Positions 2,195 to 50,038 of a DNA stretch of 64,000 nt are shown here, piece after piece (positions within the stretch are counted from its first letter, which is position 1; the number at the start of each line of letters is the position of its first letter). The notes under the pieces were generated by a model that saw nothing but the letters and a program-made list of their open reading frames with translations, searched no databases and was not told the DNA's origin. Origin of the DNA: Bdellovibrionales bacterium (GTDB lineage: Bacteria; Bdellovibrionota; Bdellovibrionia; Bdellovibrionales; UBA1609). The stretch spans positions 118,027-182,026 of the forward strand of contig JAYUKW010000001.1 of the NCBI GenBank assembly GCA_043764155.1, read 5' to 3'. Position numbers and translations under genes: made by a program.

Positions 2195-3190
2195 ATGTTA
2201 AATTTAATTAAATTTCGAATCCTATTTATTCTGTTACTAAATTCCTCTTCTGCGCTTGCAACTAGTCTTGATACTAATCAATTAACAAGTGTAGAAAAAT
2301 GTAGTCATATTCTCACTTTGTATCCTGATGCCATTGAAAGTTTTGATGTTCAGAGCAACACATTAGTTTTTAAAAATGGACATCGTAGTTTTTGTGATGA
2401 TGGACAGGTTTACAATTTAATTCAAAATTTAGATTATCAAAAACAAATGTCCCAAGTCGATTTAAGCGATATTCTTTTACAAGCTTATCCAGATCATTAC
2501 ATGGCTCCAATAACAGAAAAGAATTACTCTCCAGGCCGATTTCGTCACGATCAACTTTTAATAAATACATATTTAAATATAAACGCCCTTTCTAAAACAG
2601 ATCTTCTAAAATCGGCCAAAGATGATCTTACAATTGACGATGTAAAAATCCTAGCTCGCTACTTACAAATGGAAATCGTAAAAGTTAAATTTCTTGGTTT
2701 TGATATTAACATGAATCAAAGAAATGGGGCTGCTGAAGCCCTTGCACGAGTAGGGCGGCGGTTAGAAAAAGATTTTCCCCAGGGGGCTAAATGGCTTATT
2801 TCAAATCGAAATATGTCTGGGGGATTTAACATGCGATTTATCAGCGGAACTAAAAGACTATCTTCTCATTCATGGGGGATTGCGGTCGATTTCACATTAA
2901 AAAATGCGACTCCAAATTTAAAATGGTTTGATTCCTACTGGAAGTGGATTGCCGTATGTGCACCAAACTTAAAATGTTCACCAGCAAGAACTGACGAAGG
3001 GGCCAAATATCGAAGAGATTTAAGTGAAGAACTTTTAGATGTTCAGATCTATCCCCTAAACTTCGACCACTTCCCCCCAGAAATTGTTCAAGTCTTTGCC
3101 GACGAAGGTTACATCTGGGGCGGTCACTGGCACCACTTTGATACAATGCACTTCGAGTACCGTCCCGAATTCTTCACCCATCAAAAATAG
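2195..3190 (+). CDS. secreted M15-family (LAS-type) zinc peptidase, probable peptidoglycan peptidase
   Basis: 331 aa; signal peptide; SSHSWGIAVDF and GGHWHHFDTMHFEY metal-ligand motifs; last codons and stop lie inside the palindrome arm. Confidence 0.7.
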   Translation: MLNLIKFRILFILLLNSSSALATSLDTNQLTSVEKCSHILTLYPDAIESFDVQSNTLVFKNGHRSFCDDGQVYNLIQNLDYQKQMSQVDLSDILLQAYPDHYMAPITEKNYSPGRFRHDQLLINTYLNINALSKTDLLKSAKDDLTIDDVKILARYLQMEIVKVKFLGFDINMNQRNGAAEALARVGRRLEKDFPQGAKWLISNRNMSGGFNMRFISGTKRLSSHSWGIAVDFTLKNATPNLKWFDSYWKWIAVCAPNLKCSPARTDEGAKYRRDLSEELLDVQIYPLNFDHFPPEIVQVFADEGYIWGGHWHHFDTMHFEYRPEFFTHQK

Positions 3191-3642
3191 TCCTACACTT
3201 ACTAATTCTTAAAAAAACTTATTTAAAGTCTATTTTGATTATAAATATAATTTTCATCATAGAATTTAAAATAGGCTCGTTGGCGTGAAGCCTTGCTCGA
3301 AATCTATTCTGGTTTTTATATAAATTTAAAGATCATTGGGACATTTAAAACAGGGCAGACCTTGTCATTCGCTTTGCAGATTAATTTTGTTCTCTAGACA
3401 TTGCTTAACAAACTATAATGGTTGTTTTAACTTATCCAGCAGAGCAAAGCTTCACGCCAACGAGCCTATTTTAAATGTCCTAATGATCTTTAAATTTATA
3501 TAAAAACCAGAATAGATTTCGAATGCAAGGCGAATGACAAGGTCTGTCCTATTTTAAATTCTATGATGAAAATTATATTTATAATCAAAATAGACTTTAA
3601 ATAAGTTTTTTTAAGAATTAGTAAGTGTAGGACTATTTTTGA
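3181..3642. repeat. nested quasi-palindrome E1 (modules A-B-C-D-loop-B'-C'-D'-A')
   Basis: Outer arms 3181-3275 vs 3548-3642 are exact reverse complements (95/95). Inner arms 3301-3354 vs 3465-3518 match 52/54. Cassette B ctcgttggcgtgaagc is at 3276-3291, rc copy at 3449-3464. Cassette D gcagaccttgtcattcgc is at 3355-3372, rc copy at 3530-3547 (17/18). Apical segment is 3380-3442. Confidence 0.95.
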
Positions 3643-4427
3643 CAGGTGGGGCAGAAGTAGCTGGATCGGTTGGACTGGGTGATTTTTTTAATTGTTGTTT
3701 GGCAGATATTGCATTTGGAATTTTCTTGGCCATAGACTTGCCAATGATTTTGCATATCGCCTTGTTCGCCGGCAACGTTTTTATAATCTCGAAGTGAGCT
3801 TCCACCTTTTTTAATGGCTTCATTTAACACATTCTTGGTTTCTGTAATGATATTAATCCAATCATTAAATTTTAATTTCGATGTTATTTTTGTGGGTTTG
3901 ATTTTTGTTTTAAAAAGAATTTCAGAGGCATAAATGTTACCTACGCCTAAAATATTTTTTTGATTTAAAATCCATGATTTTATTGGTGTGTTTGATTTTT
4001 TTGCTTTTGAATAAAAATCATTTGAATCAAGCTGGTCATGAATGGGATCGGGGCCAAAATTTTTAAATGTATTCTGATCAAATTTTAAAATATATCCAAA
4101 ACGTCTAGGATCATTGTAAATTAAATTTATATTACTCCATTCAATTACAACATGATCGTGTTTTATTGGTGCGTAAGTAGCTTCATATCGCCAGTGACCA
4201 GTCATACCTAAGTGTGAAATAAAATGATGAGTATTAGTTTTTAAAATTAAAAATTTACCACGACGATCAACAGATAAAATACTTTTATTTTTCAAGTCCT
4301 TTAATTCTCTTAAAGGTAGTGGGAAGCGCAAATCTTTTCTTAGGAGCTTAATTTCTTTGATTGCCTCTTTGGGCAACTGGTTTTGAATACCTAGTTTTAT
4401 AATTTCGACTTCAGGGAGTTCTGGCAT
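3633..4427 (-). CDS. mutM: formamidopyrimidine-DNA glycosylase
   Basis: 264 aa; MPELPEVE N-terminus; C-terminal zinc finger CNICQ...FCPTCQK; stop codon lies inside the E1 arm. Confidence 0.9.
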   Translation of the reverse strand: MPELPEVEIIKLGIQNQLPKEAIKEIKLLRKDLRFPLPLRELKDLKNKSILSVDRRGKFLILKTNTHHFISHLGMTGHWRYEATYAPIKHDHVVIEWSNINLIYNDPRRFGYILKFDQNTFKNFGPDPIHDQLDSNDFYSKAKKSNTPIKSWILNQKNILGVGNIYASEILFKTKIKPTKITSKLKFNDWINIITETKNVLNEAIKKGGSSLRDYKNVAGEQGDMQNHWQVYGQENSKCNICQTTIKKITQSNRSSYFCPTCQK

Positions 4428-13627: not shown

Positions 13628-14659
13628 ATGATAAAAAAATTCTTTGGTCCGTTTAAAGAAAAAATCCTTATCGTTGATCAACTCACTCCAAAAAACTTTG
13701 AACCAAAACACAGCCTGTTGTTTATTGATGAGAATTTAAAAGAATTTCCAGAAATCAAAAAGTTGGAATCTAAATTTCAAATTTTATTTTTAAAAGCGGG
13801 CGAAGATTTAAAATCTATCGACGGATTAAAATCAGTTTTAATAAAGATCGAACCCCTGCTTGAAAACATCCAACCCCCATATTGTTTTGTGGCTATCGGC
13901 GGGGGAAGTATGGGTGATTTTTGTGGATTTTTAGCTAGTATCTATCATCGTGGTGTCGATTTTATACAGTGCCCAAGTACTTGGCTTGCAGCCATTGATT
14001 CGTCACATGGGGGTAAAACTGCACTAAATGTTTTAAGTTTTAAAAATCAAATTGGAACTTTTTATCCAGCAAAACAAATAATAGTTTCTAAATCCTTGCT
14101 TCAACATCAAAGCCCAACAAAAGCCATGGGCGAGATCACTAAAACTATTTTGCTTTCTAGCCAAAATTCGAAACTTAGAAATTTTATAAATAAAAATTGG
14201 CCGGCTGATTTTGATACAGTTTGGTCTTCGATCACAGACTTTATTAATGTTAAAAATTCTTATGTTAAAAAAGACCCTAAAGAAAAAAAGAAAGAAAGGT
14301 TTAAATTAAATTTAGGTCATACGGTGGGACACGCCTTAGAAAAAATTTATGGTTTACCCCATTCAGAAGCTGTTCTAAGAGGTGTTATTTTTGCTGTCAC
14401 GTGGAGTGTTAAAAAGAAATACTCACATATAAAGCTGCTTCAAGTTTTAATTCATTATCTAGAGATCAATCAATTTTTCCTTGGCGACCTACCCAAAAAG
14501 TCTGAAGTTGAATTCGAAAAGGCTTTACTAAAAGATAAAAAACGAAGTGGTGAAGATATTAATTTTGTTTTTTTAAAAAACTTCAGAGCTGTAATTAAAA
14601 AAGTCACTGTTCCAGAAATTATTAAGGAACTTAAAAATCAAGGCTTAATTGCCAAATGA
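13628..14659 (+). CDS. aroB: 3-dehydroquinate synthase
   Basis: 343 aa; GGGSMGDFCGF, DSSHGGKTALN, LNLGHTVGHALE. Confidence 0.8.
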   Translation: MIKKFFGPFKEKILIVDQLTPKNFEPKHSLLFIDENLKEFPEIKKLESKFQILFLKAGEDLKSIDGLKSVLIKIEPLLENIQPPYCFVAIGGGSMGDFCGFLASIYHRGVDFIQCPSTWLAAIDSSHGGKTALNVLSFKNQIGTFYPAKQIIVSKSLLQHQSPTKAMGEITKTILLSSQNSKLRNFINKNWPADFDTVWSSITDFINVKNSYVKKDPKEKKKERFKLNLGHTVGHALEKIYGLPHSEAVLRGVIFAVTWSVKKKYSHIKLLQVLIHYLEINQFFLGDLPKKSEVEFEKALLKDKKRSGEDINFVFLKNFRAVIKKVTVPEIIKELKNQGLIAK

Positions 14660-24333: not shown

Positions 24334-25029
24334 TTAATCCTCAATTGAATATTCGAACGGATAATCCATTCGAGGGATAAGGGCTTGTTTCACTTCTGAG
24401 AACCAATGTCTTTTTTGTGGGTCCCAGCGAAATCCAATTCGACGGGCTTTATCTCGGTCATCAAATCCAACGTGAGCAAAGACCTTAACAAGAGGGGACT
24501 GTTGAATCATCACAATCTCTTCAATGTCATACTTAGATAAAAGCTTTAAAGTGGTCAAAACATCAAAAAGGGCGCGGTGGGCAAATGGATTTAAAAAACC
24601 GTGCTCAGCGGCAAGGTAGGACAGCTTTCTGGTTTTAATTTCTTGGGCGTAAGGAATATCAGTTAAGGTGTCGATCCAAGGTTTTTTAAGCTTAGGCATT
24701 TGGTAACTTAAATAGGCTTGATTTAAAAACTCAGAATCAAAGCTAATGGCGTTGTGGCCCACTAAGTATTCAGCTTGGTTAGCGAGTTCAGTTAATGTTT
24801 TAAGAGCGTCACTTAAAGGGATCCCGTACGTCTTCAAATCTTCAGATGATATTCCAGTGATACTTTGAACTTCGTTCGAAAGATCTATGTTATCGAAATA
24901 GATAAGTTCGTTAAAAATCTTTTTGGGTGCTTGTCCTTCGGTGTCCCAAAGCACAGCCCCAATTTCAATGATTTGGTCTTTTTCAAAACTTAATCCAGAG
25001 GTTTCTAAATCGACTCCTAAAACTAACAT
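24334..25029 (-). CDS. DEDDh 3'-5' exonuclease (DnaQ-like) with C-terminal DUF5710-like domain
   Basis: LGVDLETSGL, VGHNAISFDSEFL, HRALFDV; C-terminal RRIGFRWDPQKRHWF. Start moved to the ATG at 25029 (AAAGGA RBS), because 25030-25146 of the track ORF covers the rnpB terminator and rnpB 3' end. Confidence 0.75.
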   Translation of the reverse strand: MLVLGVDLETSGLSFEKDQIIEIGAVLWDTEGQAPKKIFNELIYFDNIDLSNEVQSITGISSEDLKTYGIPLSDALKTLTELANQAEYLVGHNAISFDSEFLNQAYLSYQMPKLKKPWIDTLTDIPYAQEIKTRKLSYLAAEHGFLNPFAHRALFDVLTTLKLLSKYDIEEIVMIQQSPLVKVFAHVGFDDRDKARRIGFRWDPQKRHWFSEVKQALIPRMDYPFEYSIED

Positions 25030-25061
25030 GTGATGTCCTTTTGTTGGAACTTTTCTTTTTA

Positions 25062-25088
25062 TAAAATGGCGGGGGTCTTTCGACCCCC
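25062..25088 (-). terminator. intrinsic terminator of rnpB
   Basis: On the - strand: GGGGGTC-GAAA-GACCCCC (7-bp GC stem, GNRA loop), followed by GCCATTTTAT. Confidence 0.7.
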
Positions 25089-25100
25089 ATTGACGAACCT

Positions 25101-25467
25101 GTAAGTTTCTCTTTAAGCCGGATTCTGTAACTTTAAAAATCGTCACAATTTTTAAAATCTAACCATCATTCCTCTAGGATTAAAGTTACCTTTAACCTCA
25201 AGCAATCTACCCGAAAACTGGTGCGAGCCGCACTCATAGCGTTTCCCTATTTGACCTTGCTTCGCGCAGAGTTTTGCTGTTTTCACTCCAACAGCTCCCC
25301 GAAGATCTCCCGTTCCCGATCTAAGGATCATAGCCTTGGACATTCTCTCTGTTCCACTGTTCCTCATCTTACGATGGAGGGGCGTTACCCCATGCGCTGC
25401 TCTACGAAGTCCGGACTTTCCTCCAAAATGGTTTAACCCATTTCAGCGATGGTCTTTCAAAACTTAC
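25101..25467 (-). ncRNA. rnpB: RNase P RNA (bacterial type A-like)
   Basis: The - strand contains GGAGGAAAGUCCGGAC (CR-I/P4 5'), GGUAACGCC, CAGUGGAACAGAGAG, GCAAGGUCAAAUAGGG, GGGUAGAUUGCUUGAG, CCUAGAGGAAUGA and ACAGAAUCCGGCUUA (P4 3'). P1 pairs GUAAGUUU with AAACUUAC; P2 pairs GACCAUC with GAUGGUU. Confidence 0.93.
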
Positions 25468-31390: not shown

Positions 31391-31659
31391 TTTCTGAAAA
31401 TAGAGCTTCTCATTTAAGTCATTTAATTTTTGAAAAATTATGGAATGATGATGTTGTTGAATACTCTGATGAAGGTGCGGCCCTAAAAGATTATAAACGT
31501 GGTTTAGATAAGTTTTTAAAAGAACACACGGATGTCGATAAAAAAGCAAAAAGCATGATTTCGTCGCAAAGCCGAAGTATTCTTGAAGGAACGGCTGAGT
31601 GGGAGACTCTTTATAAAAAATATTACGAAACTGAACTTAAAAGAAAGGGTATAGATTAA
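31387..31659 (+). CDS. DUF507-family small protein
   Basis: 90 aa; EGTAEWETLYKKYYETELKRKG, as I recall for DUF507. Confidence 0.6.
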   Translation: MISENRASHLSHLIFEKLWNDDVVEYSDEGAALKDYKRGLDKFLKEHTDVDKKAKSMISSQSRSILEGTAEWETLYKKYYETELKRKGID

Positions 31660-33122
31660 TGATCAAATTTGTATTCGCCGTATTTTTATCCTTAAGTGCT
31701 TTAAATAGTTTTTTGAATGTGGCCCAAGCTGATATTTCTTGGCAAGGTCGCTACAGAGCCTCTTACAATTATATTACTGATCCTAGTTTAAGTGGTGATG
31801 GTTCAGATAAAAATTATTTTTTACATCACTTGGTTTTAACACCTAAAATTATTTTGGCAGATGGGTTTGAACTCATTTCAACTTTAGATATTTTAAACAA
31901 TGGTGATTATGCAGTTGTTGGATCACAGGCAGGACAAAGTCTTGGTTCTGGTGGATCTAAGCCTGCAAATACTTTTTATGGTTCTGATGGATCCCCAGCT
32001 TTAGCAGATAATCAAATTGGTAATGTGCGTGATGCCAATATACGTGAATTTTATTTAGTTTATAAACATGCAGGCGGAAGATTTAAGTTAGGTCGTGCGC
32101 CGCTGCATTTTGGACTTGGAATTAATTTAAATAACGGCCAAGGTGCTTTCGACCATTATTTCGATAACAGAGACATGGTGTCTTACGAAGTTCTATTCGG
32201 TGGAATGAAGTTTCAGCCTTATATTGCAAGAATCACGGACGGGTTTAATAGCTCAGGCAATGCGGCTAATGAGCTTGGTTTGATAGCAGATTGGGATAAA
32301 AAAGATTCAGGACTTAAGCTTGGACTTTTGGGGCTTATTCGTCACGTGCCAGGCAGTTTAAATAATAATCAAGTCTCAACATCTGGAGCCGCTGATTTTC
32401 AACGATATGGTGTTTATGTTGAAAGAGTAAATACAAAAGATTCGGATTTTAGATACGCTCTCGAGCTTGGTTTAAATTCTGGAAAATTGGGATTAAATTC
32501 AACCGGTAAAGAAATCAAGTACAGTGGTTTAGGACTTGCTTTTGAAATGGATTATTTCACACCAGTTCGGGGTTTAAAAATGGGACTCAAGTCAGGTTAT
32601 GCCGCTGGAGCAGATGCATCTAAAGATGATAATTTTTCCGCGTTTGCATTTGATCGAAATTATGATGTAGGTATGCTTTTATTTAATCACCCAATGGGAA
32701 ATAAAAACTTAGACTTGTTTTCGTCGACTGCTTTTGGAAGGCAAGGAGCTAACTTTGGTTCGGGGTATCAACCCAATCAGTCTATTGATTCCGAAACTGT
32801 TGCAAATTCAATTTATGTAGCCCCATATATTTCATACGATGTTGATGCAAAATGGAATATCACTTCGTCTTTACTTTGGGCGCAGTTAGAAAATACAAAT
32901 GTAAATTCACCATTTTTCTCTACAACATCCAATTTAATAGTAGATCGAGATTTGGGTTTTGAAGTTGATTTCGCACTGACTTATAAACCATTCAAACTTT
33001 TAACTTGGGAGACACGTCTTGGTGGATTCTTCCCTGGAAAAGCGTTTGAAGGTGGATCGCAAAACTTTGATACTAAAAATGTGATTGGTGGAGTGTCTCG
33101 TATATCTTTAAGCTTTGAGTAA
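31659..33122 (+). CDS. putative outer-membrane beta-barrel protein
   Basis: 487 aa; signal peptide ending AQA; Gly/aromatic-rich alternating strands; coupled to the DUF507 pair. Confidence 0.55.
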   Translation: MIKFVFAVFLSLSALNSFLNVAQADISWQGRYRASYNYITDPSLSGDGSDKNYFLHHLVLTPKIILADGFELISTLDILNNGDYAVVGSQAGQSLGSGGSKPANTFYGSDGSPALADNQIGNVRDANIREFYLVYKHAGGRFKLGRAPLHFGLGINLNNGQGAFDHYFDNRDMVSYEVLFGGMKFQPYIARITDGFNSSGNAANELGLIADWDKKDSGLKLGLLGLIRHVPGSLNNNQVSTSGAADFQRYGVYVERVNTKDSDFRYALELGLNSGKLGLNSTGKEIKYSGLGLAFEMDYFTPVRGLKMGLKSGYAAGADASKDDNFSAFAFDRNYDVGMLLFNHPMGNKNLDLFSSTAFGRQGANFGSGYQPNQSIDSETVANSIYVAPYISYDVDAKWNITSSLLWAQLENTNVNSPFFSTTSNLIVDRDLGFEVDFALTYKPFKLLTWETRLGGFFPGKAFEGGSQNFDTKNVIGGVSRISLSFE

Positions 33123-33137
33123 TATTTTATTTCTAAG

Positions 33138-33239
33138 CTGTCTAGTTCACTCGTTGGCTTTATGGGCGGCATCGTTCAGTCCGCTTCGCTGGGACTTCCG
33201 TTCGCACGCCCAGCCAACTCGCTGGAACTTTTCTTTATT
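33138..33239 (+). repeat. GC-rich structured module G1
   Basis: Has 5' ctgtctagttcactc and 3' tcgctggaacttttc, identical (15/15 each) to the flanks of the module in the E2 apical loop. Internal stem: gttggct..gggcg / cgccc..agccaac. Confidence 0.85.
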
Positions 33240-33368
33240 GTCTAGTTCACTCACACCCACACGTCGAACTTCGTTCGAATAACGTGGGGCTCGTTGGAAC
33301 CCGCAGAGAGACTTCGTCTCTCGTTTGCGAGCCTAGGCTCGCTCCGGCGGGGAACTTTTCTTTTTATT
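33240..33368 (+). repeat. GC-rich structured module G2 (tandem to G1)
   Basis: Starts gtctagttcactc and ends ggaacttttc. Contains hairpins cgaac-ttc-gttcg, gagagac-ttc-gtctctc and gcgagc-ctag-gctcgc. Abuts the stop codon of the convergent gene. Confidence 0.8.
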
Positions 33369-34848
33369 ACTGTCGAACGGGTCGTCTTGTAGTGACCTGT
33401 TGAAAGCCTGGGCCAGCATCTTGTCCACGCTGAATTCCTTCTGAAGCACGAAGTGCATTTATGTTAACATCCCCACTAACAATGTCACCATTTGGAAATG
33501 CAGTAGGTGGTAATAACATCGCATTGCTTGGATCTAAGTTTGCTGTAGGGGAAGCCAAGTCAGTAAAGATCGAAGGTTGAATTCCAATGGGGTTTTGAGT
33601 TGTTACAGTCGGAACTTGAGTCGTAGACGACGCTTGTAGTGAAGTTATTGGCTGACCTTGCGCTATTTTCACAGACTCTTGGGCCCAGTAGTTAACTGCA
33701 AAATCAATATTTGTATTTGCTGAAGCTAGAGCTGCCGGATCTGCGGCTAAAGCAGTACTGGCTTGAGCTTTTAAACTTGCGCTGATGTTTGTTAATCCTG
33801 ATTGTAGCTCAATTAGTTTTGTACTTAATTGTGTCTGTGATAACTGGTCACTTGGGTTCAATTTTAATTGATTTTGTAATGCTGTGATCTCTGCAAGCTT
33901 AGAACTAATTAAGATCGCGGCCTGTCCATGAGCTTGAGCCCCATACTGTAAACCCAACTGGTTTCCTGTGGCTGCGTCAGCTTGACCAGCAGCTGTGTAA
34001 AAGTCATTGGCTGTTCTTTGTGTTGCATTTGCAGAGCCCATGTTGTCACCTAATTCGTCGGCAAAAATGGGAGCAATGTTCGCATCAAAGTAAGCTTTTT
34101 GATCTGCTTCACTTAAGCCTTCAAGTTCTGCCATATGACAATCTTTAATTTGATTGAATTCGGCTGGAACATCTTTATTTAAAAATGCAGATGTTGATGC
34201 TGGTGCAATTTCAGAATCTAAATCAAGGTTAAATCTTTGATCATCATCAGAGTCTTCAGAATTGGAACGATCACCAAAATCATGATCTAGTAAACCTAGT
34301 GCAATTAGTTTTTCTGAAACCTCAGTAAAAGCCACAGCTTTATCTTCACGACTTCCGCGTTCATTTGCTCTTTTGTATCGGGCGATTAGATCTGTCATTT
34401 GAAGACTGTCTTCTTGGCGAACTAAACACTGATTGCTTTTAGTTTGGTAATTTCTTAATGCCTGTCTGACATCATCAGTTGATGGTAAATTTTCTGGAAT
34501 CAAACCTGTAAATGTTCCGTCGTCAGAGGACTCGGCTTCGCCATCTTCAATATTACTAACTTCATCGCCGGCATTTTCACTTAGTTCATCAGCATCTTGG
34601 ATTCGCATAGGAGGAGTCGCAGCCGGAGGACTATCTTCAAGGTCTTCGGCATTATAAGTGCGCCCATTGATAATCAGTGTATTCCCGGAACCTTCAATTG
34701 ATCCGTCGACAGCGACTTCATTGGCAAGCTCGCGGTGTATTTTATCAGAGTTAAAAGGTTTCATAAAAAAAGAAACCTGAAACACGGCTAAGCTTAAAAC
34801 GGCGGTGGCTTTAAAGATACCCTTAATATACTGACTTATGTTTTTCAT
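33367..34848 (-). CDS. hypothetical membrane-anchored/secreted low-complexity protein (acidic N-half, Ala/Gln-rich C-half)
   Basis: 493 aa; N-terminal hydrophobic anchor; no recognisable domain. Confidence 0.5.
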   Translation of the reverse strand: MKNISQYIKGIFKATAVLSLAVFQVSFFMKPFNSDKIHRELANEVAVDGSIEGSGNTLIINGRTYNAEDLEDSPPAATPPMRIQDADELSENAGDEVSNIEDGEAESSDDGTFTGLIPENLPSTDDVRQALRNYQTKSNQCLVRQEDSLQMTDLIARYKRANERGSREDKAVAFTEVSEKLIALGLLDHDFGDRSNSEDSDDDQRFNLDLDSEIAPASTSAFLNKDVPAEFNQIKDCHMAELEGLSEADQKAYFDANIAPIFADELGDNMGSANATQRTANDFYTAAGQADAATGNQLGLQYGAQAHGQAAILISSKLAEITALQNQLKLNPSDQLSQTQLSTKLIELQSGLTNISASLKAQASTALAADPAALASANTNIDFAVNYWAQESVKIAQGQPITSLQASSTTQVPTVTTQNPIGIQPSIFTDLASPTANLDPSNAMLLPPTAFPNGDIVSGDVNINALRASEGIQRGQDAGPGFQQVTTRRPVRQ

Positions 34849-39060: not shown

Positions 39061-39654
39061 ATGAAATGGATTGGTTTAACAGGATGTATGGGGTGTGGAA
39101 AATCCACAGTAGCCCAAATTTTAAGGCAAGATCATGATCTTGAAGTCATTTCAGCTGACGATGTGGCACTAGAAATTTTAAAAACGGACCAAGAGCTTCA
39201 GGACTACATATCTAAAAATTTAAATGTTGGCTTTGATCCCGACTTTAGTTTGTATCGATCAAAGATCTCGGCCAAAGTTTTTGGCAATCCAGAGGCCTTA
39301 AAAAAATATGAACAGATTTTTCATCCTAAGGTGAAACAATATGTAGCAGGACTTAAAGAAAAGCTTTCAAAAAATCAAGATCTTGCTTTTTATGATATTC
39401 CTCTCTTGTTTGAAAAAAACATGCAATCAGATTTTAGTGCCATTATCGGTGTCTTTGCTGATCATGATGTGCAAATGGCTCGACTTAAAGAGCGAAACCA
39501 ATGGACAGATGATCAAATTGCAGAACGCTTAAAACATCAGATTCCAAATAAAACCAAAATCGACCAATGTGATTTTATTATTTTTAACAACTCATCCTTA
39601 GATAGTTTGAAAACTCAAATCATCGACATCCTGGCTAAACTCGTCAGTCATTAA
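39061..39654 (+). CDS. coaE: dephospho-CoA kinase
   Basis: GLTGCMGCGKST P-loop right after the ATG at 39061 (the track ORF begins at a TTG at 39028); last 15 nt and stop lie inside the E2 arm. Confidence 0.85.
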   Translation: MKWIGLTGCMGCGKSTVAQILRQDHDLEVISADDVALEILKTDQELQDYISKNLNVGFDPDFSLYRSKISAKVFGNPEALKKYEQIFHPKVKQYVAGLKEKLSKNQDLAFYDIPLLFEKNMQSDFSAIIGVFADHDVQMARLKERNQWTDDQIAERLKHQIPNKTKIDQCDFIIFNNSSLDSLKTQIIDILAKLVSH

Positions 39655-40074
39655 AATCTCATTTACATAATATTTAATTTTTATATTTTAAAGAGATCTT
39701 CACAATTTAAAACAGGCTCGTTGGCATGAGGCCTTGCTCGAAATTCATTCTACATTCTATTTAAATTCAAAGATCCTTAGGACATTTAAAACAGGGCAGA
39801 CCTTGGCATTCGCTTTGCACAAGTTGGAAAAGTTCCAGCGAACTGGCGAGGGTGCGTAGCCCCTCGAAAGCCAGTGAGTGAACTAGACAGTAGCAAAGCT
39901 TCACGCCAACGAGCCTGTTTTAAATGTCCTAAGGATCTTTGAATTTAAATAGAATGTAGAATGAATTTCTAATGCAAGGCGAATGACAAGGTCTGCCCTG
40001 TTTTAAATTGTGAAGATCTCTTTAAAATATAAAAATTAAATATTATGTAAATGAGATTTTAATGGCTGACGAGT
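39639..40074. repeat. nested quasi-palindrome E2 (same architecture as E1)
   Basis: Outer arms 39639-39716 vs 39997-40074 match 77/78. Inner arms 39741-39795 vs 39914-39968 match 55/55. B is at 39717-39732, rc copy at 39898-39913. D is at 39796-39813, rc copy at 39979-39996. The apical segment 39821-39891 is a G module in - orientation. Confidence 0.95.
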
Positions 40075-47030: not shown

Positions 47031-47906
47031 ATGGTATCTGAAATTTTTAATCCCGAGTTGTGGACTACTGTAGAAGGTTTTAGTTTTTCAGATATCACTT
47101 ATCATCAGGCTAAAAATCAAGGAACAGTTCGAATTGCATTTAACCGCCCTGAGGTTCGAAATGCGTTTCGTCCGCAAACGGTGGATGAGCTTTACACCGC
47201 TTTAGATCACGCTAGACAAAATCCGAGAGTTGGAACTGTAATTTTAACTGGAAATGGGCCTTCCCCAAAAGACGCCGGATGGGCTTTTTGCTCCGGCGGG
47301 GATCAGCGGGTCCGCGGTGAATCTGGCTACCAGTACGATCCCTTATCTAAGGCCGGTCGTCTTCATATTTTAGAAGTGCAGCGCCTTATTCGCTTTATGC
47401 CAAAAGTTGTTGTGTGTGTTGTCCCTGGATGGGCTGTGGGGGGTGGGCATTCACTTCATGTTGTGTGTGACTTAACTTTGGCGAGCGTTGAGCATGCCGT
47501 CTTTAAGCAAACCGATGCTGACGTTGCTAGTTTTGACGGGGGATACGGCTCCGCATATTTAGCTAAAATGGTAGGACAAAAGAAAGCTCGCGAAATTTTC
47601 TTTTTAGGAAAAAGTTATAGCGCACAACAAGCGCTAGAAATGGGAATGGTGAACGCCGTTTTTAATCATAATGAATTAGAATCAGAAGCTTTAAAATGGT
47701 GTGCAGAGATCAATTCAAAAAGTCCAACTTCGATCCGAATGTTGAAGTATGCATTTAACTTAGCCGATGATGGAATGGTGGGGCAGCAACTTTTTGCAGG
47801 CGAAGCCACACGTTTGGCTTATGGAACAGAAGAGGCCAAAGAAGGACGGGATGCGTTCTTAGAAAAACGAGATCAAGATTTTTCTGAATTTCCATATCAT
47901 TTTTAA
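47031..47906 (+). CDS. menB: 1,4-dihydroxy-2-naphthoyl-CoA synthase
   Basis: 291 aa; crotonase fold; FCSGGDQRVRG; C-terminal DFSEFPYHF typical of MenB. Confidence 0.85.
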   Translation: MVSEIFNPELWTTVEGFSFSDITYHQAKNQGTVRIAFNRPEVRNAFRPQTVDELYTALDHARQNPRVGTVILTGNGPSPKDAGWAFCSGGDQRVRGESGYQYDPLSKAGRLHILEVQRLIRFMPKVVVCVVPGWAVGGGHSLHVVCDLTLASVEHAVFKQTDADVASFDGGYGSAYLAKMVGQKKAREIFFLGKSYSAQQALEMGMVNAVFNHNELESEALKWCAEINSKSPTSIRMLKYAFNLADDGMVGQQLFAGEATRLAYGTEEAKEGRDAFLEKRDQDFSEFPYHF

Positions 47907-48009
47907 AAACCCTCTGACCCTTTTTTCTGTCCAATCTGCGTCAAAAATTCATATATATTGGAATAATTTTTGACGCAGTTTGGACAGAAAAAAGGGTCAG
48001 AGGGTTTTT
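47905..48009. terminator. 45-bp-stem hairpin between convergent menB and the hotdog gene (bidirectional terminator candidate)
   Basis: 47905-47949 pairs with 47965-48009 with a single mismatch (47935/47979); 15-nt loop. The left arm starts within the menB stop codon. The right arm covers the last codons and stop of the convergent gene. Confidence 0.7.
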
Positions 48010-48479
48010 ATGCCGCGTTTTTTTAAAGATAAAGTCAGTTCAAAAGTCATGATATGGTCGTTTAAGTTAGAAACTTCGAAGGCTTTTCCACGAATAATTT
48101 TTTCTTCTCTTTCGCCAGAAAGTAAAGCTTTTGAGATCAGATCTTCAACATCTTTAGTTTGTTCGCAAATAAAATGAACATCACCTTCTGCTCGTTTTAA
48201 GAAGTCAGCTTTAAAATCTTTAAATAAAAAATTGATAGGCTTCTTTTTTAAAAAAACCAATTCCACAGCTTTAAGCGCACACGTCAACTCTGCGCCCACA
48301 GTCAAAGCCCCAAAGTACATAGCCCCTAAATGGTTTTTAGTTCTACGTTTAAGTTTAATTTCAACTACAGATCTTTTTTCACTAAGCTCTAAAACTCGTG
48401 GTCTCATAAATGCAATAATTGGAATCTTAAAAAAAGTTAACAAATAAATCATAAAACTTAATTTCGTTTCTGCTTTCAT
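47997..48479 (-). CDS. hotdog-fold thioesterase-like protein (DUF4442/YiiD_C-like)
   Basis: 160 aa from the ATG at 48479 (GGAG RBS). The track ORF extension to 48545 runs through an inverted repeat. Family assignment is by weak recollection only. Confidence 0.45.
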   Translation of the reverse strand: MKAETKLSFMIYLLTFFKIPIIAFMRPRVLELSEKRSVVEIKLKRRTKNHLGAMYFGALTVGAELTCALKAVELVFLKKKPINFLFKDFKADFLKRAEGDVHFICEQTKDVEDLISKALLSGEREEKIIRGKAFEVSNLNDHIMTFELTLSLKKRGIKTL

Positions 48480-48489
48480 ATTTACTCCA

Positions 48490-48606
48490 AAAAGTGCCAG
48501 GTTCCGTTTGCGAATTAATGTTGTTATTATCGATTTGGTATTCAATTTAAATGCATTTCAAACCATAACAAATGCGTTTAATCCACAAACGGAACCTGGC
48601 ACTTTT
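48490..48606. repeat. 21-bp perfect inverted repeat flanking a 75-bp spacer
   Basis: aaaagtgccaggttccgtttg (48490-48510) pairs with caaacggaacctggcactttt (48586-48606). The right arm abuts and overlaps the POT stop codon. Confidence 0.85.
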
Positions 48607-50038
48607 AGGTGGGTTCGGCGAGGTTGTGATCTTGTAGGAATGTTTTTTCTTTGTAGAAGTAGGCGATGATCATAAAGATGATTCCGGCCCAAAAGACCAT
48701 AGCGGTGAAAAACCAAAAGTAGTTCGCGCCGGCGAGGATATTAAAACCAAGGGCTTTGTCTTTGGCCACAAGACCATTGACGTTGGCCGTGACGATATTT
48801 CCTAAAGATATTGAAAACATAAATAAGGCCATAACAAACGACTTCATGCTGTTTGGTGCCTGAGTGTAAGAAAATTCTAAAGCTGTGATTGAAATTAATA
48901 TTTCAGCCGCAGTGATCAATACAAAAGCTAGAACCTGCCAAAGCATAGATGGTGTTGCACCGTTTTGAATCCACTGCTCTGTTATAGCGATAACAGCAAA
49001 TGAAGCTGCTGTTAGAAAAAAGCCAACACTGATTTTTCTAAGTGGAGTTACTTTTACCCTGCGTTCAAAGAAAGGATAAATAATTAAAGTAAAAAGTGGA
49101 ATATAAAGTAAAACTAAAACCGGATTTACTGCTTGAACTTGCGCAGGCAAAATAGTGAAGCTAGCAAAACCTAAATTCACAATACGATCAAGCTTGTCAG
49201 CTTGTAACACCCATGATGAGCCCGTCTGGTCGTAGAGGGCCCAGAATACAGCGATCACTAAATAGATAAGACCGAGTTTTAAAAGAGCAAAAATTCCGTC
49301 TCTGCTTTTTAGATCTTTTAAAAATGTAGCTCCGTCAGCAGGCATAGCTATGAACTCGTGGCGACCCATATAAAATATGACGGTCGCTACGAACATTAAA
49401 ATCCCAGGAATACCAAAGGCGACAGATGGACCATAAATCTCTAACATCCAAGGAATGATTAATATTGAGAAAAATGATCCAAAGTTAATAGACATATAAA
49501 AGTAACTAAACACTTTATCTATTAAATGTTTTTTACTAGCGTCGAACTGATCGCCAACATGCGCAGACACACAGGGCTTGATCCCACCAGAACCAATAGC
49601 GATAAGTCCCAATCCTACAGCAAGTAAAGTTTTGGGTTCAGCAAGAGTTAAAATAAACGGAACTTCCATTAAGGCTAAAACCAGATGTCCAACACAATAA
49701 ACCAGAGACAATCCAATAATCGTTTTATATTTCCCTAAAAATAAATCAGCCAGCAAAGCGCCAAATAGTGGAAAAAAATAAACTGCAGCAACAAAATAAT
49801 GATACCATTCAGAGGCTTCAGAACCGGTAAAAAAAGCATCCTTACCTTGGCTATCTAAAATAAACTTAGTCATAAAAATCATCAGAATAGCTTTCATTCC
49901 ATAAAAACTAAATCTCTCAGCAGCTTCATTCCCGATGATATAAAAAACCCCTTTAGGCATTTTATCTTTTGATGCACTAGTCATTTGATTTTGAGACTGG
50001 TTCGGCGTTTTATTATTGGTGCTACTAATTGAACTCAT
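48605..50038 (-). CDS. POT-family proton-dependent oligopeptide transporter
   Basis: 477 aa; GNEAAERFSFYGM (ExxERFxYYG-type) signature; about 12-14 TM. Confidence 0.85.
   Translation of the reverse strand: MSSISSTNNKTPNQSQNQMTSASKDKMPKGVFYIIGNEAAERFSFYGMKAILMIFMTKFILDSQGKDAFFTGSEASEWYHYFVAAVYFFPLFGALLADLFLGKYKTIIGLSLVYCVGHLVLALMEVPFILTLAEPKTLLAVGLGLIAIGSGGIKPCVSAHVGDQFDASKKHLIDKVFSYFYMSINFGSFFSILIIPWMLEIYGPSVAFGIPGILMFVATVIFYMGRHEFIAMPADGATFLKDLKSRDGIFALLKLGLIYLVIAVFWALYDQTGSSWVLQADKLDRIVNLGFASFTILPAQVQAVNPVLVLLYIPLFTLIIYPFFERRVKVTPLRKISVGFFLTAASFAVIAITEQWIQNGATPSMLWQVLAFVLITAAEILISITALEFSYTQAPNSMKSFVMALFMFSISLGNIVTANVNGLVAKDKALGFNILAGANYFWFFTAMVFWAGIIFMIIAYFYKEKTFLQDHNLAEPT

Follow-up and report, generated by a model that had tools for sequence, protein, structure and literature searches.

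Stop-Codon-Anchored, GC-Rich Palindromic Repeats in Bdellovibrionales Genomes

Two adjacent GC-rich modules, termed G1 and G2, lie between a pair of convergent genes in the genome of a Bdellovibrionales bacterium. They are probably two head-to-tail copies of a lineage-specific, non-autonomous, GC-rich palindromic repeat of the REP/BIME/RPE-like kind that is located in 3′ UTRs, with a third copy at the apex of a long palindrome (E2) in the same window, the window being the whole 64-kb stretch of DNA that was analysed. The family is present in at least three related low-GC Bdellovibrionales genomes. No description of such repeats in Bdellovibrio-like bacteria was found in the literature, and the repeat is previously undescribed and new at the family level, being of the REP/BIME/RPE kind.

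Repeat Units in the Window

The plus-strand gene at 31659-33122 encodes 487 amino acids ending in ...SLSF, probably an outer-membrane protein, and its stop codon (33120-33122) lies 14-16 nt upstream of G1. The convergent minus-strand gene at 33367-34848 encodes a 493-aa protein and ends in the TAA at 33367-33369, which reads TTA on the plus strand and is directly abutted by the T-rich tail of G2, whose last position is 33366. The 244-nt gap between the two stops is filled by the adjacent units. Two independent ENA contigs carry G1 and G2 identically, and the units are therefore not an accident of assembly.

G1 (33137-33238, plus strand) is a long-form unit, which was recognised from the sequence, from box searches and from a covariance model match of 53-62 bits. 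It consists of the 5′ box GCTGTCTAGTTCACTC (33137-33152), an outer stem P2 with the arms GTTGGC/GCCAAC (33153-33158 and 33213-33218), an inner stem P3 with the arms GGGCG/CGCCC (within 33164-33211), and the 3′ box TCGCTGGAACTTTTC (33219-33233), which is followed by a T-rich tail to 33238. The P3 loop holds a nested mini-module, TCGTTCAGTCCGCTTCGCTGGGACTTCCGTTCG, at 33172-33204. An alignment and a list of copies indicate that this mini-module separates the long from the short form in many copies with differing P2 stems. G2 (33239-33366, plus strand) is a unit of the “GCACCCACACGTCGAAC” type, as judged from its sequence and coordinates, from blastn and from a covariance model match. It comprises a 5′ box (33239-33252), a hairpin region with the first GGAAC at its end (33253-33300), a nested Y-shaped module CCGCAGAGAGACTTCGTCTCTCGTTTGCGAGCCTAGGCTCGCTCCGGCGG between two GGAAC pentamers (33301-33350), and the 3′ box with its T tail, GGAACTTTTCTTTTTA (33351-33366). 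The hairpins of G2 are three and short, with TTCG or CTAG loops, and its first half has about 12 near-identical blastn matches in a related MAG. The third unit (39826-39890, minus strand; covariance model match of 77.6 bits) is of the short form, with P2 ACTGGC/GCCAGT and P3 GAGGG/CCCTC, and forms the apex of E2, the arms of which lie at 39639-39716 and 39997-40074.

All three units start with TGTCTAGTTCACTC and end with GGAACTTTTC. The 14-mer TGTCTAGTTCACTC has exactly three copies in the window, at 33139 (+), 33239 (+) and 39876-39889 (-), against a chance expectation of 0.19, and none of 100 shuffles gave three. For GGAACTTTTC, four copies compare with an expectation of 0.31, the additional one being a solo at 25046, and TCGCTGGAACTTTTC is exact in both G1 and the E2 apex copy. 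The cores of these two units read GTTGGC-TTTAT-GGGCG...CGCCC-A-GCCAAC and ACTGGC-TTTC-GAGGG...CCCTC-GCCAGT, and their differences are compensated in both the outer and the inner stem.

The GC content of positions 33138-33368 is 0.537, compared to 0.344 for the window; taken as units, G1, G2 and the E2 apex copy have 53-55% GC in a window of 34%. Folding of both strands beats that of shuffled sequences (z of -2.3 to -5.1), and the minus strand of G1 folds at -38.6 kcal/mol (z = -5.1). On the plus strand, the 3′ end of G1 and that of G2 each form a terminator-like GC stem with a T-run, both of which are flagged by a terminator scan, so the convergent plus-strand gene meets the pair in hairpin plus T-run orientation. 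The original prediction had described identical flanks, compensatory central hairpins, a G2 that keeps the boxes and adds several short hairpins, high GC content, and a position between convergent genes reaching up to the minus-strand stop codon, and all of these features are borne out.

Distribution and Copy Number

Searched by itself, the 14-mer gave only single chance matches in IMG/VR. A two-box pattern was therefore adopted, in which both boxes stand 38-98 nt apart with an S between two gaps, and this pattern was first tried on the window. Among 185,579 species with one genome each, it returned about 58 exact copies at 47 loci, all hosted by two Bdellovibrionales MAGs, JANODG01 (GCA_031412575.1, which has most of them) and JBGSLV01. 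A covariance model derived from 43 short units brought the count to 78 for the window together with the 47 fetched loci (69 in JANODG01, 6 in JBGSLV01 and 3 in the window), and the window still yields only three with the model filters off. Further copies, the lack of which would have spoken against the original prediction, thus exist. These 78 units, found in about 0.4 Mb of sampled DNA, have a GC content of 0.5-0.69 and are mostly intergenic. They are spread over at least 40 contigs behind housekeeping genes, including pnp, era, der, aroB, hemY and the RNase P RNA gene.

Copy number differs widely, from 3 in the 64-kb window to at least 69 in the sampled loci of JANODG01, while window genes share 70-80% nucleotide identity with those of JANODG01. 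No match was obtained with the two-box pattern in IMG/VR, or with either a strict or a relaxed pattern in JGI metagenomes. The family is therefore rare or absent in these collections.

Unit Structure and Covariation

The consensus unit can be written as (GC)TGTCTAGTTCACTC - hairpin - (T)CGCTGGAACTTTTC(C) and is 45-130 nt long. The boxes pair in a helix termed P1 (AGTTC/GAACT, with the variants AGCTC/GAGCT and AGCAC/GTGCT). More than 20 compensated alleles of P2 were found, and P3 alleles include GGGCG/CGCCC, GAGGG/CCCTC and GTCGA/TCGAC. In JANODG01, a second small hairpin termed H2 follows the unit (e.g., CCCACTGCGTGGGGC), and it covaries too. The P2 and P3 stems can have almost any sequence provided that pairing holds, while the boxes are nearly invariant.

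The statistical check of covariation that had been proposed gave a clear outcome. In the covariance-model alignment, 92.6% of cells are paired, compared to 31-46% in slid controls, and there are 298 double-sided changes compared to 26-59, with P1, P2, P3 and H2 all covarying. In a MAFFT alignment, which is not fitted to structure, the corresponding values are 85% versus 30-49% paired and 107 versus 13-49 double-sided changes. Wobble pairs show no strong asymmetry (GT/TG 31, AC/CA 41); since G-T and A-C mismatches are equally frequent, neither strand is marked as an RNA.

Short and long forms share P2 and P3, and the long form, which includes G1, adds a mini-module of 31-33 nt in the P3 loop. 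Another hairpin of 40 nt sits in P3 of three copies, and the 50-nt Y-shaped module of G2 occupies the same relative position at two other loci (L108 and L123). GGAAC is repeated on both sides of this nested 50-nt module only, and GGAACTTTTC together with H2 can itself be repeated. Judging by the positions of the modules in P3, between GGAAC pentamers and at the tip of E2, nesting is always into loops or at the GGAAC core.

Orientation and Stop-Codon Anchoring

Units between co-directional genes have a strongly preferred orientation. In 37 of 44 cases the mRNA strand reads GAAAAGTTCCAGCGA...GAGTGAACTAGACA and has no T-run, and 4 of the 7 reverse-oriented units belong to inverted pairs. The position of the arrays is equally constrained. 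In 38 of 45 arrays, the GGAACTTTTC end (the first GAAAAGTTCC on the mRNA strand) lies no more than 23 nt from the stop codon that ends the upstream gene. Measured between this stop and the first GAAAAGTTCC, the spacing amounts to -1 to 6 nt for 14 arrays and to 19-23 nt for 4. Another 20 arrays have a spacing of 12-15 nt, which exactly one H2 fills (TAA|GCCC... or TA|GCCC...), and most of the remaining arrays also begin TAAGCCC. The far end of the array, in convergent regions, lies 3-259 nt from the next gene. Unit positions agree with NCBI gene calls. Neighbouring units form 13 direct tandems, 8 head-to-head pairs and no tail-to-tail pair, and the latter imbalance follows from the anchoring rule. 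Since the stop-to-array distances occur in all three frames, stop read-through or recoding was rejected.

G2 obeys the same rule, as the minus strand reads TAA-TAAAAA-GAAAAGTTCC. It follows that the array in the window is that of the minus-strand gene and only adjoins the plus-strand one. More generally, the fixed polarity, with the GGAACTTTTC/H2 end behind the stop, means that the mRNA of the anchoring gene has the strand that lacks a T-run. Anchored stops are enriched in TAG (14/35 versus 46/217, p = 0.02), which suggests that the first G of the element sometimes completes the stop codon. The stop itself is not part of the element, because the flank is not TAA where no gene ends at the boundary. 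No TA or TAA target duplication was seen at the far end of arrays. Random or merely TA-directed insertion cannot explain stop-flush arrays, because 20-300 nt of spacer are available beyond them.

AT-rich perfect hairpins with T-runs occur just downstream of arrays at three loci (L156 18785-18840, L115 about 3740-3790 and L133 about 1320-1360), and they look like native intrinsic terminators. Because such terminator-like hairpins lie just beyond the arrays, the arrays appear to be wedged between stop codon and terminator. It had been suggested that the modules might be 3′ UTR elements, and their positions, starting at the stop of the gene that reads them and with native terminators beyond, are consistent with this.

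GC skew at 8 kb is confounded with gene direction. In the six discordant cases, the unit follows the gene every time, which gives a hint only in favour of a transcription bias over a replication bias.

Variation Between Genomes and Copies Inside Genes

Units are not conserved at orthologous sites in genomes whose genes are 70-80% identical at the nucleotide level, and they are absent in more distant relatives. Beside the RNase P RNA, JANODG01 has three units (L126 2271-2470), compared to only the 17-nt GGAACTTTTCTTTTTAT in the window. Behind aroB, JANODG01 again has three units (L110), where the window has overlapping genes. At two further loci (L153 and L154), the counterparts of the window's convergent gene pair stand 12 nt apart with no unit between, and 71% identity extends over the C-terminal 184 residues of the neighbouring protein. 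At another locus (L152), a 50%-identical orthologue of the 493-aa protein has the same C-terminus, RPVRQ*, and is without units. Among the orthologous sites compared there is no clean recent pair of filled and empty sites, and the element boundaries are for this reason inferred.

A minority of units lie within genes. In JANODG01, a homologue of HemY/protoporphyrinogen oxidase (L156 10001-11206, JANODG010000088.1) contains one in-frame unit. This gives an insert of 18 residues, which follows the invariant FSETWI motif and is missing from the 12 closest homologues. The hemY gene that carries it stands in an intact heme operon and is annotated by NCBI as encoding a normal 401-aa protein, and its alignment to a solved protoporphyrinogen oxidase continues past the 18-residue insert. 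AroB, the 3-dehydroquinate synthase orthologue, has a 75-residue C-terminal extension through three units in JANODG01 (L110 204-1004 versus window 13628-14659), and this extension restores an ATGA in which its stop codon overlaps the start of the following gene. Era seems to be extended at its N-terminus through two units. The peptide frame of the genic copies is not conserved across the whole unit. Taken together, copies that differ between genomes and insert in frame into genes suggest, at the level of sequence, that the family behaves as mobile repeated DNA, a reading that the original prediction touched on only by proposing a test for RAYT genes.

Other Elements of the Window

E1 (3175-3648) and E2 (39639-40074) are long nested palindromes of about 435-475 nt. 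Their outer arms are 101 nt (98% complementary) and 78 nt (99%) long, and their inner parts are 88-89% alike, while their apices are wholly different: the E1 apex is 64 nt of AT-rich sequence, and its counterpart in E2 is the G unit. No E-type sequence was found in the 155 fetched loci, including those of related genomes rich in G units. The resemblance of G2 to two cassettes of the E elements (B and D), which had been noted earlier, comes down to one shared 10-mer, GGCTCGTTGG. This 10-mer has five exact copies, four of which are the E1/E2 arms themselves, and the estimated chance of one such match between G2 and an E element is roughly 0.1. Given this weak match and the lack of E-type sequence in the G-rich relatives, kinship of the G units with E1/E2 is not supported, and the G unit at the E2 apex is a case of nesting, not of common descent. 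The idea of a modular family of structured repeats therefore holds for the G units, with their many copies, covariation and nested modules, but not for a family shared with E1/E2.

A solo 3′ box with its tail, GGAACTTTTCTTTTTAT, lies at 25046-25062 (plus strand, 17 nt) and is identical to the end of G2. It is located between the gene at 24334-25030 and the RNase P RNA (25098-25466, minus strand), directly after the terminator hairpin of the latter, and is either what a deletion has left behind or a core site that existed before. The RNase P RNA is of bacterial class A (207.5 bits) and is the only Rfam family above threshold in the window. Two further strong hairpins, unrelated to the G family, lie at 47904-48010 (46-nt arms, 98% complementary, with a 15-nt loop) and at 48487-48609 (32-nt arms, 91% complementary); they may be another repeat family or terminators.

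Searches for Known Families and a Mobilising Enzyme

No Rfam family matched the region of G1 and G2 at gathering thresholds or at E <= 10 as a family assignment; the best scores in 33050-33450 were 12-15 bits (E = 0.13-6.9). A scan for tRNA and tmRNA found none. CRISPR repeats are among the families that Rfam covers, and a CRISPR reading was rejected for want of a match. A phmmer search with one RAYT seed (E. coli RayT) against the 810 ORFs of the window and loci (about 0.47 Mb) gave no match at E <= 10, which is a weak negative. Thus the match to a known REP/BIME family or transposase that would have spoken against the original prediction was not found with this one seed in about 0.47 Mb.

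At one locus (L105), a minus-strand ORF at 1682-2671 encodes a 329-aa predicted lipoprotein with no Pfam match, and is flanked on both sides by head-to-head unit pairs. It was rejected as a RAYT-type transposase, since its product is a predicted lipoprotein, and its RAYT-like layout arises because the neighbouring arrays are anchored at stop codons. No ORF enclosed by a 5′ box and a 3′ box, as in a parent IS, exists in the sampled DNA.

The ends of the units are equally devoid of the usual signatures of transposition. There are no terminal inverted repeats, as GCTGTCTAG... and ...GTGGGGC (or ...CTTTTCTTTTTA) are not complementary, and the only pair near the unit ends is the subterminal AGTTC/GAACT. 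No common direct repeat that could be a target-site duplication is found at the ends of single units or arrays. The GTAG (GT[AG]G) head is absent at either end of the hairpin, where the head is (GC)TGTCTAGTTCACTC. Neither strand of the unit boxes fits the attC boxes RYYYAAC/GTTRRRY. An attC reading was rejected on this ground and because the units are scattered over at least 40 contigs, with no cassette array beside an integrase.

Comparison with Known Repeats

REP and BIME elements are transcribed with neighbouring genes and can affect mRNA stability (Delihas 2011, PMC3184786). The G units resemble those of Enterobacteria, Pseudomonas and Stenotrophomonas in being GC-rich imperfect palindromes that occur in tens to hundreds of mostly extragenic copies, as single units or as mosaic clusters of several motif types. 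They differ from REPs in length (45-130 nt compared to 21-65 nt), in having two conserved boxes around a stem of free sequence, and in lacking a GTAG head. Neighbouring G units are mostly direct tandems (13) or head-to-head pairs (8), unlike the regular alternation of BIMEs. Many E. coli REPs are reportedly located no further than about 15 nt from a stop codon and have an influence on translation, as ascribed to Liang, Rudd and Deutscher in 2015; the anchoring of G units is much tighter, at 0-1 nt from the element end. Unlike in the REP/RAYT system, no RAYT was found (one seed, about 0.47 Mb).

RPEs, which are palindromic repeats about 100-150 bp in length, have no known transposase and occur between genes and in frame in housekeeping genes (PMC10969869). 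The G family shares with them the in-frame peptides in HemY, AroB and probably Era. However, RPEs belong to another phylum, and no sequence relation between the two is known. Moreover, G copies in genes are a minority with a peptide that is not conserved in frame over the whole unit, and the G family combines a high GC content within an AT-rich genome with a strong polarity relative to stop codons. MIRUs, which measure 40-100 bp and lie in operon spacers, contain internal inverted repeats that are GC-rich and have frames that overlap the flanking stop and start codons (PMC3184786), much as L110 retains an ATGA stop/start overlap across three G units. In contrast to the G family, MIRUs occur at about 40 loci as variable-number tandem repeats and have no box/stem/box design, and most G units are untranslated.

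Among MITEs and similar elements, QMITE2 is found mainly in 3′ UTRs, and the pneumococcal SPRITE mimics a terminator (PMC10969869). The G units are similar to SPRITE and to MITEs such as Correia, ERIC, QMITE2 and Chunjie in being short, non-coding, multi-copy and RNA-structured. No terminal inverted repeats, target-site duplication or related IS were found for the G units, unlike for MITEs, and the G units are GC-rich, while MITEs are typically AT-rich. Like attC sites, G units have conserved pairing ends and a centre that is free in sequence and length yet folded, with a variable terminal structure, and, with fixed polarity, they start at or beside the stop codon that ends the ORF before them. 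attC sites act as folded single strands, and the same may apply to G units. They nevertheless have no RYYYAAC/GTTRRRY boxes and are scattered over at least 40 contigs instead of forming an array next to an integrase.

The GC clusters of yeast mitochondria are mobile palindromic modules, short and GC-rich, within a very AT-rich genome, and they are strain-polymorphic and can be nested or genic. They differ from G units in being organellar and eukaryotic and in belonging to other sequence classes, and we know of no stop-codon anchoring among them. To our knowledge, how most small palindromic repeats move (RPEs and many REP-like families included), and why they are tolerated, is not known.

Origin and Possible Function

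The reading that we consider probable, in which G1 and G2 are copies of a non-autonomous palindromic repeat, implies that units would spread as DNA by means of a putative enzyme acting on a folded single strand, that is, on the boxes with any stem between them. Such an enzyme would prefer single-stranded loops and gene ends. The array in the window would have arisen by insertion after the stop codon that ends the minus-strand 493-aa gene and would be transcribed as its 3′ UTR, in which the stable hairpins would block 3′ exonucleases. For the convergent plus-strand gene, each unit would present a hairpin and a T-run, and would probably aid termination. Selection against the orientation that ends in hairpin and T-run, and would thus terminate, is the simplest explanation for the orientation bias in operons. 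The near-invariance of the boxes beside free stems could equally well be explained by a function at the level of the host.

A more far-reaching proposal, which we regard as rather unlikely, is that DNA modules are placed precisely after stop codons, with fixed polarity and behind dozens of unrelated genes, by an undescribed process, which would be either a targeting tied to the end of translation or the domestication of a 3′-end RNA module. In the targeting form, insertion would occur into single-stranded DNA that is exposed when transcription loses its ribosome, or by recombination at the GGAAC core. In the domesticated form, the host would need a 3′-end RNA module flush with the stop codon. 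Self-nesting of units into their own loops would then share a mechanism with stop-codon placement.

It is unlikely, though compatible with the main reading, that the units are primarily cis-acting RNA modules of the host in the 3′ UTR or intercistronic region, and that spread by duplication or recombination is secondary. The stop-flush hairpin and the single-stranded boxes would then be a recognition site for an RNase or another protein, which would determine mRNA 3′ ends, make the upstream cistron more stable or affect how translation terminates. The nearest precedent for such a role is the one reported for those E. coli REPs that lie near stop codons. Stop-codon anchoring with strict polarity, the 37:7 orientation bias, the six of six GC-skew-discordant cases in which the unit follows the gene, and arrays between stop codons and native terminators all fit such a module, as do near-invariant unpaired boxes with covarying stems, the usual mark of a functional structured nucleic acid. 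What argues against it is that units are not conserved at orthologous sites despite 70-80% nucleotide identity and are absent in more distant relatives, that copy number varies from 3 in 64 kb to at least 69 in the sampled loci of a relative, that units are also found in coding sequence and at the apex of another palindrome, and that no excess of G-U over A-C (31 versus 41) marks a functional RNA strand. A quite improbable alternative is that the units are repeat-borne intrinsic terminators, similar to SPRITE, that stop opposing transcription and in the window terminate the plus-strand gene. Here the strand 5′-TGTCTAG...GGAACTTTTC does end in a GC stem and a T-rich run, with G1 and G2 flagged by the scan; the T-run end invariably points outward from the anchoring gene and is thus met, just outside that gene, by an opposing RNA polymerase; and the 14-16 nt spacer of the plus-strand gene holds no other terminator. 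Yet the flagged stems are only 5 bp long, and the genome with many copies has a broken T-run (TTTTCC) with another hairpin behind it. While G1 and G2 show the stem and T-run on their plus strand, the opposite orientation is seen for 37 of 44 operon copies, and most units lie between co-directional genes, where a convergent transcript is not expected. Nesting and in-frame genic copies would also be left without an explanation.

Independent small-RNA genes, which the original prediction had listed as a possibility, or a new class of self-cleaving or ligand-binding RNA are very improbable. Conserved unpaired nucleotides, covarying stems, high GC content within an AT-rich genome and significant folding z-scores would be expected of such RNAs, but there is no Rfam match even at E = 10, upstream flanks are unrelated and share no promoter or other context, and units occur in operon spacers and within ORFs. 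In addition, large nested inserts break the stems at variable places, and one genome has dozens of copies where its relative has a handful. The ribozyme and small-RNA gene readings were rejected on the lack of an Rfam match and of a shared promoter, and on the copies inside ORFs.

Significance

The main interest of the family lies in its stop-codon anchoring and its self-nesting. Its rules are unusually clean, with invariant boxes, free paired stems, nesting in loops, fixed polarity and a start at the stop codon. Together with the very different copy numbers in relatives, these rules make the search for a mobilising enzyme a tractable comparative problem, and the effect of stop-adjacent hairpins on the fate of the mRNA becomes testable. 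For annotation, the family accounts for GC-rich islands, spurious ORF extensions and odd peptide inserts, such as that in HemY, in these Bdellovibrionales MAGs.
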